This document shows, piece by piece, positions 3,728-62,116 of a stretch of DNA of 64,000 nt; position 1 is the stretch's first letter, and the number at the start of each line of letters is the position of its first letter. The stretch is taken from the NCBI GenBank assembly GCA_964613815.1, contig CAZTKG010000005.1, positions 22,026 to 86,025 of the forward strand, read 5' to 3'. Below the pieces are notes generated by a model that was not told the DNA's origin, made no database searches, and saw only the letters and a list, made by a program, of their open reading frames with translations. The position numbers were made by a program, and so were the translations under genes. Source of the DNA: an uncultured Gammaproteobacteria bacterium (lineage in GTDB: Bacteria > Patescibacteriota > Patescibacteriia > UBA9934).

Positions 3728-3782
3728 GGGATCTCTTCCCATCTCGAGCGAAGTCGAGAGATCTCTCCACTCCCTTCGGTCG
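3728..3782. repeat. Palindromic intergenic element, copy A (degenerate) of a dispersed family
   Basis: CCCATCTCGAG...GAGAGATCTCTCCAC...GGTCGAGATGG shares arms and the central GGAGAGATCTCTCC palindrome with copies at 15427, 39415, 41825 and 62033. Confidence 0.5.
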
Positions 3783-3883
3783 GTCGAGATGGAAATGCGT
3801 TAGGGTTGAGTTTTTCCGATCTTACGCTTACGATGTAAGGGTTGAACGATCCCTTCTTATGTGATTGAATGGGTATTCAAGGC

Positions 3884-3959
3884 GGGCGCGTAGCTCAGCG
3901 GTTAGAGCGCGGAGCTTATATCTCCGTGGTCGATGGTTCGAATCCATCCGCGCCCACCA
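3884..3959 (+). tRNA. tRNA-Ile with apparent UAU anticodon (tRNA-Ile2 type)
   Basis: GGGCGCGTAGCTCAGCGGTTAGAGCGCGGAGCTTATATCTCCGTGGTCGATGGTTCGAATCCATCCGCGCCCACCA. The cloverleaf is canonical: AC stem CGGAG/CTCCG, loop CUUAUAU giving anticodon UAU. The body resembles tRNA-Ile(GAU). Confidence 0.75.
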
Positions 3960-3960
3960 T

Positions 3961-4100
3961 CGTGCTCCTGAATGTGCGTATAGCACTTCTGAATCCGCCC
4001 GAGCCTTGCGGTGCTCGACAACGTACTATTAGTACGCCTTACTCCGCTCCTCGTCTCGGACGAATTCAGAAGCACTATCCACACATTCAGAAGCACGACT
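3961..4100. repeat. MITE-like element: ~38-bp imperfect terminal inverted repeats flanking a ~60-bp core with a 13-bp palindrome GTACTATTAGTAC
   Basis: 3961-3997 (cgtgctcctgaatgtgcgtatagcacttctgaatccg) is the reverse complement, at about 85% identity, of 4060-4100. The two mirrored spurious ORFs (3869.. plus strand, 3902.. minus strand) give near-identical peptides. Confidence 0.55.
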
Positions 4101-4176
4101 GTATTTAATGGCTTACTTTTTCGCTTCATTCCCCATCCTGAGGAAGAGAGATCCTGCTCTCTGACGGAAGGATCTC

Positions 4177-4359
4177 TTGTTCGAGTTTATGATTTACGCA
4201 GTTGTCTTGCTTATGGTATGTGCTGGGTATTTCGGTTATGAACTTGTTCGTAAGCGGACTTTTCATGCTGCTTGGACGTTTATGGCTTGGTTTTCTTGTT
4301 TGCTTGGGAGTTCATTTGTGACATTTGTTGTTTGGGAGACGGTTCGAGGGGTCGTCTAG
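4177..4359 (+). CDS. Small hydrophobic protein (60 aa)
   Basis: Two predicted TM segments; immediately upstream of a second membrane protein gene. Confidence 0.3.
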   Translation: MFEFMIYAVVLLMVCAGYFGYELVRKRTFHAAWTFMAWFSCLLGSSFVTFVVWETVRGVV

Positions 4360-4362
4360 TTT

Positions 4363-4806
4363 ATGCCGGAATTACTTGGGTATACAATCATGATTGCAGT
4401 GCTCTGGTTTTTGATATTTTGGATCCTTGGTGGGGTCTTTTTTGCTATTGTGACGCTGGCTCGAGTGACGAAACTTCGGAAGGCTCGGTTTAGTTGTTTG
4501 TTTACTCTTTTGTCGATGTCGTTTGCGTATGGCGCGGCTTATAGCGGGATGTATTTTGGCGCGAAACGGATTCGGTTTTGTTTGCATGAGGCTTCGGCGT
4601 TTGTGGATGTACTGGCGGCGATTTTTGGGTGCGGTATTTTGGAGATGATTGCGAGTGGCGGACTTTGGTTTATTGGGCTTTTGGCGTGTGGGTTTGTGGT
4701 TTTGATTGTTTCGCGGGCGGAGAATCAGAGTTGGGTGGACAATGATATTCAGGAGCAGGAGCCGGTTTTCGTGGAGGACATGGAGCGGAGGGATGTGGTG
4801 ATTTAG
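4363..4806 (+). CDS. Hypothetical membrane protein (147 aa, 4 TM segments, acidic C-terminal tail)
   Basis: The hydrophobic profile is the only evidence; no recognisable family. Confidence 0.45.
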   Translation: MPELLGYTIMIAVLWFLIFWILGGVFFAIVTLARVTKLRKARFSCLFTLLSMSFAYGAAYSGMYFGAKRIRFCLHEASAFVDVLAAIFGCGILEMIASGGLWFIGLLACGFVVLIVSRAENQSWVDNDIQEQEPVFVEDMERRDVVI

Positions 4807-4825
4807 TTCGAGTCCTCTGCTATTA

Positions 4826-60240: not shown

Positions 60241-60242
60241 AT

Positions 60243-60641
60243 TTATGCGAGCATTGTCGCAACGGCATCTACGGCTTTTTGGGCGTAGAGGTCGATGCGG
60301 CGTTCGATTTGGTCTGGGAGGACTTCTGGGCCGATGACACCGAGACAGATCGGTTTCATGAATTCCAAGGAGACATCAGCGAGTTTATCTACCATGACGT
60401 GACCTAGGACAAGGCCGTGTTTTGTAGAGCCTCGTTCGATGATTCCGAGGACGACGATGCCGTCGATGTCGTCTTGCATACAGAGCATTTTGGCTGCGAG
60501 GGGTTTTTCTACGGCGCCTGGGACCCAGACTTCTTGTTTGATGTTTAGGCCGTGCGTTGATGCGGCAGTTCTGACAACCTCAAGCATTCTGGTTACCTCC
60601 TTTTTGTGAAATGAGCCCATGAGGATGGCGATGTTTTTCAT
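60243..60641 (-). CDS. ribH: 6,7-dimethyl-8-ribityllumazine synthase
   Basis: 132 aa with the flavodoxin-like lumazine synthase pattern (IAILMGSFHKKEV...VPGAVEKPLAAK...GIVVLGIIERGST). Confidence 0.8.
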   Translation of the reverse strand: MKNIAILMGSFHKKEVTRMLEVVRTAASTHGLNIKQEVWVPGAVEKPLAAKMLCMQDDIDGIVVLGIIERGSTKHGLVLGHVMVDKLADVSLEFMKPICLGVIGPEVLPDQIERRIDLYAQKAVDAVATMLA

Positions 60642-61266
60642 ATGCTTGGGTGATGAGTTCTGGGTTTGAGGTTATGAGGGACTTGATGGTGTCGACGATG
60701 GTTTTTGTGTTGGCGTCTAGTTCTATGTTTACTTTGTCGCCTGGATTTTTTGATGCGATCGTTGTGATTCGGAGGGTTTCTGGGATGAGGTGGACGGTGA
60801 AGGTGGCGTTTTGATGGTTGACGTCGACGATTGTGAGAGACATGCCGTCGATTGCGATGAAGCCTTTGGGGAAGATGTATTTCATCCACTCGGGCAGCGT
60901 CTGGAATGTGAGGATGTAGTTCCCCTCTTTGGCGTGGACGTTTTTGATGGTTGCTGTGCCGGTGACGTGGCCGGAGAGGATGTGGCCACCTATTTCGTCG
61001 CCGACGTGGAAGGAGCGTTCTAGGTTTCGGGCTTTGATGTCGTCTCCTAGGGTTGTGACGTCTAGAGACTCCTTCATGGCGTCGAAGTGGATCTCTTCGT
61101 TTTTGATATCGGTGACGGTCATGCAGGCGCCGTCGATTGAGATGGATGCGCCTCGTTTTAGGCCGAAGATGAAATCCTGGGAGGGCTTTATGGCGAATGT
61201 TTTTAGGGCGCCTTTTTGATCTACCACGCGGATTGGCGCGGATTCTTGGACGATTCCGGAGAACAT
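60580..61266 (-). CDS. ribE: Riboflavin synthase (alpha subunit)
   Basis: MFSGIVQE N-terminus and the duplicated lumazine-binding barrels. Its 3' end overlaps the ribH start by ~60 bp. Confidence 0.8.
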   Translation of the reverse strand: MFSGIVQESAPIRVVDQKGALKTFAIKPSQDFIFGLKRGASISIDGACMTVTDIKNEEIHFDAMKESLDVTTLGDDIKARNLERSFHVGDEIGGHILSGHVTGTATIKNVHAKEGNYILTFQTLPEWMKYIFPKGFIAIDGMSLTIVDVNHQNATFTVHLIPETLRITTIASKNPGDKVNIELDANTKTIVDTIKSLITSNPELITQAYEKHRHPHGLISQKGGNQNA

Positions 61267-61267
61267 A

Positions 61268-61861
61268 TTAGGTAAGACCTTCGAAGACGTTTTCTAGGGA
61301 GAGGCCGGGTTCGTAGATGATTTCTTCGTTGATTGCTGATAGTACAGCTTGAAGAATTGGCTCATGTTGTTCGTTTTGGTAGTGACCGTGGCCGTCTTCG
61401 TCGACGAGGTTGGCGTGGAGGACTTTGGCGTATTTTTCGGCGTGGTCGAATGGGATAATGTTGTCATCTTTTGCGTGGACGACGGTGAAACGGGAGGCTT
61501 TCCACATGAGGACGTCGTAGTCTAGCTCGTTCATGAAGAAGCCGGTGAATTTATCGTCTTTGATGTGCCATGGGGTGGCGATGAGGATGACGGCTTTTGG
61601 GGTTGAGCGAGCTTCTGCTGCTTCTAGGAATCTTAGCGCTGTATTGCCTCCGATTTGGTGACCGACGATGATGGTTTCGTCGTCGACGATGCCGACCTCT
61701 TTGATGAGATGGTTTGTCCATTCGACTGGGTCTGGCTCGTGGGCGCTTGGGAGGTCTGGGGTAATGACGTCGTGGCCTTGTTTTCTGAGTTCAGCGTGAA
61801 GCCACGGAAAGAAATTCCGCTTGGAAGAGCCTTTGAAACCGTGGATGAGGACTATTCTCAT
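61268..61861 (-). CDS. Alpha/beta-hydrolase fold protein (RBBP9/YdeN-like); nucleophile elbow reads GHQIG, so the Ser is not conserved
   Basis: 197 aa, IVLIHGF...VGHQIGG...HAKDD...GHGH pattern. Confidence 0.5.
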   Translation of the reverse strand: MRIVLIHGFKGSSKRNFFPWLHAELRKQGHDVITPDLPSAHEPDPVEWTNHLIKEVGIVDDETIIVGHQIGGNTALRFLEAAEARSTPKAVILIATPWHIKDDKFTGFFMNELDYDVLMWKASRFTVVHAKDDNIIPFDHAEKYAKVLHANLVDEDGHGHYQNEQHEPILQAVLSAINEEIIYEPGLSLENVFEGLT

Positions 61862-61902
61862 AGGATTACAGTAAAGATAGCCTGTAAATGGCTAATAATG
61901 CA

Positions 61903-61940
61903 AGAAAAAAACCCTCTTAAATCTCGCCTGGGCGGGATTT
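61903..61940 (-). terminator. Intrinsic terminator for the hydrolase/rib operon (AAATCCCGCCCAGGCGAGATTT + T-run on minus strand)
   Basis: Hairpin followed by a T7 run in minus-strand sense. Confidence 0.5.
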
Positions 61941-62032
61941 GGAGGGATCGGTGATTCACACGGCCTCGCATAGCTGTGCGAAGCTAAACTATGCTTTGCG
62001 TGGATACGGAATCATTTTTTTTCTTTGATGTC

Positions 62033-62116
62033 AACTGTCTCTTGCTCCATCTCGACTGGAATGGAGAGATCTGATGGCGGCAGGGCGCAAGATCTCTCCA
62101 CAAGGTCGAGATGGGA
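62033..62116. repeat. Palindromic intergenic element, copy E
   Basis: CTCCATCTCGACTGGAATGGAGAGATCT-gatggcggcagggcgca-AGATCTCTCCACAAGGTCGAGATGGGAG. Confidence 0.6.

Follow-up and report, generated by a model that had tools for sequence, protein, structure and literature searches.

The dRS3 repeats and the neisserial intergenic mosaic elements (NIMEs) were reportedly described by Parkhill et al. in 2000. The dRS3 repeats are also described by Chenal et al. (2025, Nat Commun 16:2388, PMC11893778), along with the repeats that are most similar to the ones we consider here: the NTS and the Ssn-related motifs (SRMs), which go with SsnA, a GIY-YIG nuclease (cd10448). According to that study, SsnA binds its own hairpin only in single-stranded DNA and cuts the same strand at a site a few nucleotides to the hairpin's 5' side, while the complementary strand, double-stranded DNA, and RNA are all ignored. 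Also, 19% of SRM-rich genomes are without an Ssn homologue (PMC11893778). The other systems that we will compare to are the REP, BIME, and REPIN repeats with their RAYT transposases (Nunvar 2010, PMC2817692; Bertels and Rainey 2011, PMC3116915) and the hairpin ends of IS200/IS605 elements and of PATEs, their palindrome-associated derivatives.

In a 64-kb stretch of DNA (the window) from a Patescibacteria bacterium, a first-pass annotation had reported five dispersed long palindromes that match no family. These palindromes are real, and each consists of two 27-nt DNA hairpin units placed back to back. The repeated entity is this unit of about 27 nt, not the long palindrome. Our main reading, to which we assign a probability of roughly 70%, is that the elements are dimers in which a short, strand-specific hairpin unit of DNA is paired with an inverted copy, and that this unit falls within the Ssn-related motifs (SRM/NTS-like repeats). 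The claim that there is no matching family was half right. Rfam has no family at the gathering threshold, only sub-threshold matches to a generic long hairpin (a miRNA model), and the published SRM consensus does not match, but the class of Ssn-related hairpin repeats was already described in 2025 (PMC11893778).

All five loci are present, and chance does not account for the motif counts. CCATCTCGAC, with at most one mismatch, occurs 18 times in the window, as compared to 5.8 +/- 2.5 times in shuffled sequences, and GGAGAGATCT occurs 21 times (6.9 +/- 2.5 in the shuffles); 0 of 100 shuffles equaled either count. A covariance model made from the units of other genomes alone matches exactly 10 units, all of them in the five loci (28-39 bits, E = 1.4e-9 to 4.3e-6), and its next-best match in the window has just 12 bits (E = 0.34). 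Two more loci had been missed (F and G in Table 1). These belong to a sister subfamily (type 2), which has ATCCT arms instead of ATCTC; similar ATCC-type arms are found in the unit (ATCCA) that lies upstream of the ssn gene in Uhrbacteria (L039/L188). Element G has a low covariance score because its loop is long, and the loops of element F are long as well. Altogether the window contains 13 units, with five type-1 dimers and one type-2 dimer that are inverted doublets with a short spacer.

Table 1. Hairpin units and their dimers in the window, with covariance-model scores and surroundings
Element	Position	Strand	Structure	Score (bits)	Surroundings
A	3732-3799	both	Short degenerate type-1 dimer: units 3732-3766 (+) and 3757-3799 (-), overlapping at AGATCT; closing pair swapped in left unit (GA-G...C-GA), 14-nt loop in right unit	38.9 and 28.1	Start of minus-strand pseudouridine synthase gene; plus-strand tRNA-Ile
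G	4132-4177	+	Single type-2 unit, CCC-ATCCT-GA-G[23-nt stem-loop]G-GA-AGGAT-CT	11.3 (E = 0.71)	
B	15422-15480	both	Short dimer: units 15422-15455 (+) and 15446-15480 (-), fused at the AGATCT palindrome (GGAGAGATCTCTCC)	33.0 and 34.8	Downstream of RNase J gene and its terminator (terminator by eye)
C	39419-39502	both	Long dimer: 39419-39452 (+), 20-nt spacer TGCCTTTTTGATGTCCGCAG, 39469-39502 (-)	33.7 and 38.8	After terminator 39373-39401 (terminator scan)
D	41828-41912	both	Long dimer: 41828-41861 (+), 20-nt spacer TGCCTTTTTGATGATCGCGG, 41878-41912 (-, loop CGAAGT)	33.7 and 39.2	Between transketolase stop codon and terminator 41917-41939 (terminator scan)
F	47613-47736	both	Type-2 dimer (ATCCT arms): 47616-47660 (+), spacer of about 30 nt, 47691-47736 (-)	10.4 and 9.8	Convergent intergenic region, beside terminator-like hairpin at about 47740-47770 (by eye)
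E	62040-62121	both	Long dimer: 62040-62074 (+, loop TGGAAT), 17-nt spacer GATGGCGGCAGGGCGCA, 62088-62121 (-)	29.8 and 36.5	

Each of the five original loci is a head-to-head dimer whose AGATCT ends are 0 or 17-20 nt apart. Several details of the earlier description need correction. A had been ended too early, at 3782, and Table 1 gives better bounds for all five. The left flank that all copies were said to share, CCCTGCC-CCATCTCGACC, is confined to B, C, and D; its place is taken by TCTCTTCCCATCTCGAGC in A and by TCTTGCTCCATCTCGACT in E. Similarly, the central perfect palindrome is uninterrupted only in B, and A has CGAGAGATCTCTCC. The palindrome is split in three copies (C, D, and E), by 20, 20, and 17 nt. 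Perfect arms of 26 bp are present only in C; D and E each have an internal mismatch of 4-6 nt. The spacers of C and D are identical at 17 of 20 positions, and the E spacer is similar to the one in a copy right beyond the edge of the window (L178 2897-2979).

On the NTS strand, the unit reads 5'-YCC-ATCTC-GA-S-loop-S'-GA-GAGAT-CT-3'. That is, it has a 5-bp stem, two invariant GA dinucleotides on the same strand, and one or two closing pairs; its loop either has 4-6 nt or is a longer stem-loop. The two GA dinucleotides probably form a tandem sheared G.A pair. Several of our alignments relied on regular expressions that presuppose complementarity, and only three counts are free of that bias. First, in an unconstrained count of the arms, the two variable positions pair as TC/GA (196), TT/AA (38), CT/AG (5), or CC/GG (1), with 3 clear non-pairs. 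Second, the closing pair is C-G in 249 cases, G-C in 117, and A-T in 21, and 389 of 434 are Watson-Crick pairs. Third, in the flanks of ssn genes, which were chosen by protein only, 56 of 103 anchor matches are complementary at 4/4 arm positions, and these include 9 different arm sequences; in a shuffle control, 0 of 341 are fully complementary. In a set whose arm pairs were imposed by selection, 93% of cells are paired, versus 18-59% for slid partners. G.U or G.T pairs are nearly missing (2 of 441 cells). Across the family, the C that adjoins the stem shows at least 90% conservation. The units in the window carry YCC-AT as their 5' flank, and GTC-tagged units with identical ATCTC arms are found beside ssn genes (L066 and L105).

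Because both GAs are on the same strand and the tag at the 5' end is unlike that at the 3' end, a folded single strand fits these features and a double-stranded palindrome does not. We think it highly improbable that the elements are double-stranded binding sites for a dimeric regulator or a nucleoid protein. Palindromic symmetry, intergenic placement, and the AGATCT palindrome at the center of the short forms would all suit such a site. But a fixed protein would not tolerate nine arm types with complementarity kept, the same-strand GAs break the two-fold symmetry of the duplex, and the loops vary from 4 to about 60 nt.

The long forms do fold: as RNA they reach -49 to -60 kcal/mol (z = -5.4 to -9.3), and copy C as single-stranded DNA reaches -33 kcal/mol (z = -12.6). 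A single unit folds weakly, at -3.2 to -4.2 kcal/mol (z of about -1) under nearest-neighbor DNA parameters that may not credit sheared G.A pairs, as compared to -8.9 kcal/mol (z = -3.9) for the NTS under the same parameters. Within a dimer, the unit hairpins would lose out to the long hairpin that forms between the units (-33 kcal/mol). Both the weak folding of single units and the dominance of the inter-unit hairpin count against an Ssn-type reading.

Given such stable RNA hairpins (z down to -9), the elements might instead have been selected in transcripts, as 3'-UTR stabilizers, processing sites, or terminators of the flanking genes. Four of the five are 3' of genes, D is within a 3' UTR and precedes the terminator, and the loops on one strand are of the C(UUCG)G type. 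Nevertheless, we consider selection at the RNA level to be unlikely. Both orientations of the unit are present every time. It had been claimed that every copy is just 3' of a gene, but element A is upstream of both of its neighbors. As had been noticed, two copies come after a canonical terminator (B by eye, C by scan), so these may not be transcribed. Termination in particular is unlikely because three copies adjoin separate canonical terminators; the intrinsic-terminator scan calls the separate hairpins beside C and D, not the elements, which have no U-tract of their own. The near lack of G.U pairs and of any Rfam match also argues against selected RNAs, and the association with a DNA nuclease gene (see below) would be left unexplained. 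Stabilization of RNA is possible as a side effect.

The unit is not confined to the window. There are at least five further units in the 10 kb beyond each end, so the refuting condition that the first-pass annotation had set, no copies other than the five, does not apply. The motif is found at 93 or more genomic loci, against an estimated chance expectation of about 4. These loci are from Ca. Uhrbacteria, other Patescibacteria, Anaerococcus, Balneolaceae, Bacteroidota, Riflebacteria, Thiotrichaceae, and others, and near-identical 25-mers occur in Patescibacteria, Anaerococcus, and Balneolaceae. Positions are mostly intergenic. The unit also occurs singly and in tandem arrays, and clusters in Uhrbacteria alternate two subtypes of the unit.

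In syntenic relatives (75-77% protein identity), we found no units in 17 kb each. For example, the spacer between the transketolase and pseudouridine synthase genes is 51 and 64 bp in the relatives, which are free of elements there, versus 147 bp here, where it contains element D. The window elements are therefore lineage-specific insertions. Insertion polymorphism was not seen among the strain contigs, all of which share about 100% identity, and this counts against the main reading. Small, palindromic, dispersed elements that insert in one lineage could be ordinary MITEs derived from an insertion sequence of the DDE type, the arms being its terminal inverted repeats. We give this very little weight: by eye, there is no consistent target-site duplication at the five insertion sites, a DDE transposase is near the units in 0 loci, and what is conserved is a 27-nt hairpin unit that can also be single or arrayed.

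Which enzyme might act on the units? When we clustered the open reading frames of the 93 loci, the only small protein that recurs near units across phyla was a GIY-YIG protein (PF01541, its sole domain). Units flank the gene for this protein of about 94 amino acids, in inverted orientation, in Ca. Uhrbacteria, Balneolaceae, and Pseudomonadales. The gene lies inside unit clusters or between inverted units (L018/L098, L039/L188, L025, and L066), and at two more loci from other genomes (L108 and L192) inverted units flank it as well. We also collected 80 metagenomic homologues, of which 77 were scored for units. A unit is upstream in the NTS orientation in 30 of the 77, an inverted unit is downstream in 28, and both are present in 19; the opposite orientations give counts of 6-7. 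The SsnA orthologue of N. gonorrhoeae was recovered, with 94 amino acids and canonical NTS on its flanks. It aligns without gaps and over the full length to the Uhrbacteria protein of L018 (42% identity, E = 8e-26) and to that of L039 (48% identity, E = 4e-29). By sequence, the unit-associated proteins are homologues of the characterized Neisseria SsnA.

In the window and 10 kb on each side (about 84 kb of a genome of roughly 1 Mb), tblastn with 80 queries did not find an ssn or other GIY-YIG gene (best E of about 0.1), and the precomputed Pfam annotation has no GIY-YIG domain. Three further candidate proteins that we looked up are all from other organisms. These results count against the Ssn-type reading, under which we infer that the organism has an ssn gene elsewhere. 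As the unit flanks SsnA-like GIY-YIG genes in other genomes, the window elements look like gene-less miniatures of unit-ssn-unit cassettes, by analogy with REPINs or NIMEs.

If so, the units, once single-stranded (on the lagging-strand template or in incoming transforming DNA), would be recognized and presumably cleaved by a cognate Ssn-type nuclease. The dimers (unit, 0-30 nt, inverted unit) would be copies of cassettes that lost the gene by internal deletion. Whole dimers would then have been copied into intergenic regions in this lineage, a relationship like that of REPINs to RAYT cassettes or of NIMEs to dRS3; the likeness of spacers between C and D, and between E and the outside copy, suggests that dimers are copied whole. 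Any effects on transcripts, for instance through a highly stable hairpin in the 3' UTR, would be by-products. Strand transfer is not known from GIY-YIG nucleases, which counts against the Ssn-type reading as an account of how the copies spread. A bolder proposal, which we consider speculative and somewhat unlikely, is that unit-ssn-unit cassettes are autonomous mobile elements that move between phyla by a new mechanism, with a hairpin-guided GIY-YIG single-stranded-DNA nuclease of 94 amino acids, and that the dimers are their non-autonomous, MITE- or REPIN-like offspring. If this were true, then dimers would have colonized a reduced CPR genome, and they may also gate the recombination of imported single-stranded DNA.

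The first-pass annotation had compared the elements to REP/BIME repeats and had suggested a RAYT or IS200-like transposase as partner. The likeness to REPs holds for the architecture: imperfect-palindrome units, inverted doublets with short conserved spacers that form long hairpins and evolve as a whole, alternating clusters of two subtypes, mostly intergenic positions, an enzyme gene between inverted units, and, for the window, a partner enzyme elsewhere. It fails for the class of partner, as the evidence points to a small Ssn-family GIY-YIG nuclease, while RAYTs are HUH tyrosine transposases. It would thus be quite surprising if the units were classical REPs that depend, for both mobilization and maintenance, on a RAYT (HUH Y1 transposase) whose single gene copy is elsewhere in the genome. 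The GTAG/CGTC tag is missing from 13 of 13 units, neither PF01797 (RAYT) nor any Y1 transposase is annotated among the called genes of the roughly 84 kb, and no transposase recurs among the 93 loci. Furthermore, REP families are normally lineage specific, whereas this unit is common to many phyla.

The ends of IS200/IS605 elements and PATEs are also subterminal hairpins in single-stranded DNA that are read by a small nuclease or transposase, and gene-less derivatives are known there too. However, the hairpins at the two ends of IS200/IS605 are on the same strand (direct) and their enzyme is an HUH Y1 transposase, while our units have inverted ends and go with a GIY-YIG nuclease. As in dRS3 and NIMEs, short spacers lie between inverted hairpin repeats, and dRS3 repeats are now known as Ssn targets; the locus beside gonococcal ssnA has an NTS, about 49 nt, and then an inverted NTS. 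The dRS3 sequence (ATTCCC-N8-GGGAAT), the stem type, and the phylum all differ from ours.

The NTS and SRMs remain the best comparison, with some differences, of which the first two, the search expression and the 5' tag, count against the Ssn-type reading. The published SRM expression, HGTCWYN(0-2)YYVSBRHN(0-5)WNVSBRGN(0-2)RNCYNB, matches 0 of the 13 window units, and its 1 match in the window is unrelated to them (0.5 expected). Since it matches the NTS but fails at all 80 ssn loci, the expression covers less than the whole family. Here the 5' tag reads YCC instead of GTC, which is crucial there (PMC11893778; the NTS flank is GTCAT), and the stem consists of 5 bp and a GA/GA internal loop, while the NTS stem is continuous and GC rich. 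Unlike SRMs, our elements are gene-less inverted dimers with conserved spacers, in a Patescibacteria (CPR) host, with no ssn gene found in about 84 kb. On the other hand, both are oriented hairpin repeats of 20-50 nt that start with ...C-AT and end with AT-C, both are multi-copy and mostly intergenic, and both (our unit in other genomes) flank, in inverted orientation, a gene for a single-domain GIY-YIG protein of about 94 amino acids. What we found as new, then, is a sequence variant of the Ssn-type hairpin unit, in a bacterium from the Patescibacteria with a tiny genome.

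Five intergenic loci of the window (elements A to E) had been described in the first-pass annotation as one family, and all five are present. The family is real and well defined: CCATCTCGAC (with at most 1 mismatch) occurs 18 times in the window versus 5.8 expected, GGAGAGATCT occurs 21 times versus 6.9 expected, and 0 of 100 shuffles reached either count. Isolated matches to GGAGAGATCT or CCATCTCGAC within genes (at 2638, 35122, 46006, 18757, and elsewhere) have no partner half-site, and we took them as chance. The copies do fold, as had been suspected: as RNA, the long forms are well beyond shuffles (z from -5.4 to -9.3), and as ssDNA, copy C reaches -33 kcal/mol (z = -12.6 versus shuffles). 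Some details needed correction. The CCCTGCC flank ascribed to every copy is present in 3 copies only, the uninterrupted palindrome proposed as a shared core exists (as a 14-nt form) only in copy B, and copy A ends at 3799 rather than 3782. Nor is copy A 3' of a gene, as every copy was said to be: it lies upstream of both of its neighbors, a pseudouridine synthase gene and a tRNA-Ile gene whose anticodon, TAT, is uncommon among bacteria. A canonical terminator precedes B (by eye) and C (by a terminator scan), while D instead precedes a terminator (by the same scan). Element D at least might also affect the 3' ends of mRNAs as a side effect.

There are also copies beyond the five. A relaxed structural search identified two sister loci with ATCCT arms, F and G (see table), and further units lie close outside the window on either side. 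Of these outside units, three sit within an open reading frame of acidic repeats, which implies that the units are not strictly intergenic in the host organism. We estimate a density of about 7 loci per 64 kb, which would scale to an order of 100 per Mb. Rfam at gathering thresholds gave no family for the loci across the whole window; at permissive E-values, two related loci and element C gave only sub-threshold matches to generic long hairpins; and the hammerhead core (CUGAUGA...GAAA) and other known self-cleaving ribozyme cores were absent by eye. Searching the literature for the sequence strings turned up only unrelated primers.

Matched loci from other genomes show that the repeated entity is a unit of about 27 nt, not the long palindrome. 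On one strand, the unit reads YCC-ATCTC-GA-S-loop-S'-GA-GAGAT-CT. Each "palindrome" of the window consists of two such units joined head-to-head, fused at AGATCT in A and B and set apart by spacers of 20, 20, and 17 nt in C, D, and E, respectively. Across genomes, units stand alone, tail-to-tail, or head-to-head, two subtypes alternate in clusters, and a Balneolaceae has units in tandem, repeating every 125 bp or so.

The unit itself is a hairpin whose pairing is maintained through covariation. At two variable arm positions, we counted TC/GA 196 times, TT/AA 38 times, CT/AG 5 times, and CC/GG once, versus 3 non-pairs. In a set that was selected solely by the neighboring protein, the four variable arm positions were all complementary in 56 of 103 anchor matches, among which nine arm sequences were represented (0 of 341 for shuffles). 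The closing pair alternates among C-G (249), G-C (117), and A-T (21), and it is swapped within the window in the left unit of copy A. G.T or G.U pairs hardly occur (2 of 441 cells), and both invariant GA dinucleotides are on the same strand; these two features fit a folded single strand of DNA and suit neither a protein site on the duplex nor a typical RNA. A covariance model trained on 63 units, all from other genomes, identified exactly ten units in the window at 28-39 bits; the next match was at 12 bits. Taken alone as ssDNA, a unit is predicted to have low stability (-3 to -4 kcal/mol), and it would face competition from the long hairpin of the dimer. Tandem G.A pairs may go uncounted in the energy model.

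We scanned one genome per species for CCATCTCGAC-N4-7-GGAGAGATCT and obtained at least 93 loci versus an estimated 4 or so by chance. The matches listed are from Ca. Uhrbacteria, other Patescibacteria, Anaerococcus, Balneolaceae, Bacteroidota, Riflebacteria, Thiotrichaceae, and others; a scan of viral contigs gave none. A metagenome scan for the lineage-specific flank CTGCCCCATCTCGAC...GGAGAGATCT also gave no matches, so the host organism is absent from that collection. Anaerococcus (L013, L016, and other loci) has many copies of the window's exact 25-mer CCATCTCGACCTTGTGGAGAGATCT, often preceded by a conserved AACTTTAGCAATTAAA box, as well as elements of about 145 nt with inverted units at both bounds; no ssn gene was seen in the fetched 8-kb pieces.

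When we clustered all open reading frames from the 93 loci listed, only one small protein recurred beside the units across phyla. It has about 94 amino acids, and its sole domain is GIY-YIG (PF01541). Conversely, a protein-side metagenome scan gave 80 homologue loci. An oriented unit was upstream in 30 of 77 of these and an inverted unit downstream in 28 of 77 (both in 19), and units in the wrong orientation were near only 6-7. This gives a cassette of unit, ssn, and inverted unit, and the window dimers have this layout minus the gene. Most units beside the metagenomic homologues have a GTC tag and differ in their arms (ATTCT, ATTTC, ATTCC, ATCCT, and others), and in sequence they are continuous with the window units. 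The arms flanking the L039/L188 gene are related to those of the ATCCT subfamily in the window. Many ssn-like genes are on contigs of under 3 kb, as expected if flanking repeats break assemblies.

Features of the window and of loci fetched from other genomes (L-numbers; L178 is sequence beyond the window's right end)
Feature	Location	Context
Single type-2 unit (G)	4132-4177	ATCCT arms, 21-23-nt inner stem-loops in subfamily; relaxed structural search
Type-2 dimer (F)	47613-47736	ATCCT arms, 21-23-nt inner stem-loops in subfamily; relaxed structural search
Three single units	L178 4021-4055, 4576-4610, 4870-4904	inside called 751-aa ORF with long (GAA)n acidic tract
GIY-YIG gene	Uhrbacteria L018	within cluster of ATCTC and ATTTC units
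GIY-YIG gene	Uhrbacteria L039/L188	ATCCA-type unit upstream, inverted ATCCC-type unit downstream
GIY-YIG gene	Balneolaceae	breaks into tandem unit array
Tandem array	Balneolaceae L025 1700-3300 (OZ245822.1)	period ~125 bp, broken by ssn-like gene; each repeat pairs an ATCTC unit with an ATTTC unit in inverted orientation
GIY-YIG copy with in-frame stop codons	Pseudomonadales MAG	GTC-tagged ATCTC unit upstream
Small ssn-like cassette	L188 6001-6294	between housekeeping genes tsaD/tsaE
Small ssn-like cassette	L192 3001-3291	between housekeeping genes guaB/guaA
Small ssn-like cassette	L195 3001-3288	between housekeeping genes matE/lexA; gene without flanking units
tRNA-Ile (TAT)	3884-3959 (+)	adjoins element A
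tRNAs	50318-50388, 50477-50548, 50554-50648 (+)	two without ARAGORN anticodon ("ga", "ca"), adjoining 95-nt tRNA called Leu(CAA)
23S rRNA gene	54766-58508 (-)	span 3544 nt vs 2925-nt model; followed by 5S gene
Group I intron (RF00028)	55479-55782	within 23S rRNA gene

The anticodon loops of the three clustered tRNAs may be unusual, or there may be an intron. There is no 16S gene in the window beside the 23S and 5S genes, so the rRNA genes appear to be unlinked.

The GIY-YIG protein resembles SsnA of Neisseria meningitidis, a 94-aa single-domain protein (CDD cd10448) that binds NTS, a hairpin repeat (CGTCATTCCCGCGMAVGCGGGAATCYRG), exclusively as ssDNA and cuts upstream of the hairpin in a strand-specific manner, with no activity on dsDNA or RNA (Chenal et al. 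2025, PMC11893778). Inverted repeats are typically found on both sides of ssnA, and widespread homologues have "Ssn-related motifs" (SRM) of their own (PMC11893778). We recovered a 94-aa gonococcal orthologue amid canonical NTS copies; its source, a PLSDB "plasmid" (NZ_CP119140.1), is a 2.17-Mb N. gonorrhoeae chromosome. It aligns without gaps to two Uhrbacteria proteins at 42% (E = 8e-26) and 48% (E = 4e-29) identity, and on the basis of this similarity these are Ssn-family proteins. Comparing an Ssn-like protein to PDB (by sequence) and to NCBIfam gave nothing useful. The published degenerate SRM sequence matches NTS, but neither the window units nor any of the 80 ssn loci contain a match. 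The units here have a 5-bp stem and a GA/GA internal loop, with a GTC or YCC tag, and that consensus does not cover this class. As a family, the recognition hairpins extend well past the published consensus and include a large GA/GA-internal-loop class with both tags.

The host's transketolase subunit has its best homologues (72-77% identity) in organisms named as Ca. Uhrbacteria or Patescibacteria. Two syntenic relatives have no units in 17 kb each, while the homologous stretch of the window carries C, D, and F. Also, the spacer between the transketolase and pseudouridine synthase genes is 51 or 64 bp in the relatives versus 147 bp in the window, where element D lies after the stop codon and before the terminator. 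We thus take the elements to be insertions that expanded in the host's lineage. The spacers of C and D are identical at 17 of 20 positions, and that of E resembles a copy outside the window; this conservation within subfamilies indicates that whole dimers were copied. We sought target-site duplications at the copies and found none that were consistent, and ten contigs from several samples, all about 100% identical, showed no presence/absence polymorphism. No ssn gene was found in the window or 10 kb to each side, either by gene annotation or by tblastn with 80 Ssn-like proteins (nothing better than E of about 0.1), and three further candidate proteins were all from other organisms.

The best-supported account is that the units would be recognition hairpins for an Ssn-type ssDNA nuclease and the dimers would be gene-less derivatives of unit-ssn-unit cassettes. 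Cleavage at the window units, the copying mechanism of the dimers, and an enzyme encoded in the host genome are what we infer from this account; GIY-YIG enzymes are not known to join DNA. This class of hairpin repeats has been known since 2025; the sequence variant and the host group are new, and the gene-less form is REPIN-like. The window shows an expansion of the system, or of its DNA half at least, within a genome of the CPR/Patescibacteria, which are thought to depend on DNA uptake. The repeats would spread as gene-less inverted dimers. Taken together, these points supply concrete pairs of enzymes and sites that can be tested as new ssDNA-cutting specificities, and they make it practicable to ask if Ssn cassettes are mobile. 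The likeness to REP/BIME elements proposed in the first-pass annotation holds for the form, with a GIY-YIG (Ssn) enzyme in place of a RAYT/IS200-like transposase: the dimers would be to the cassettes as REPINs are to RAYT cassettes, or as NIMEs are to dRS3.
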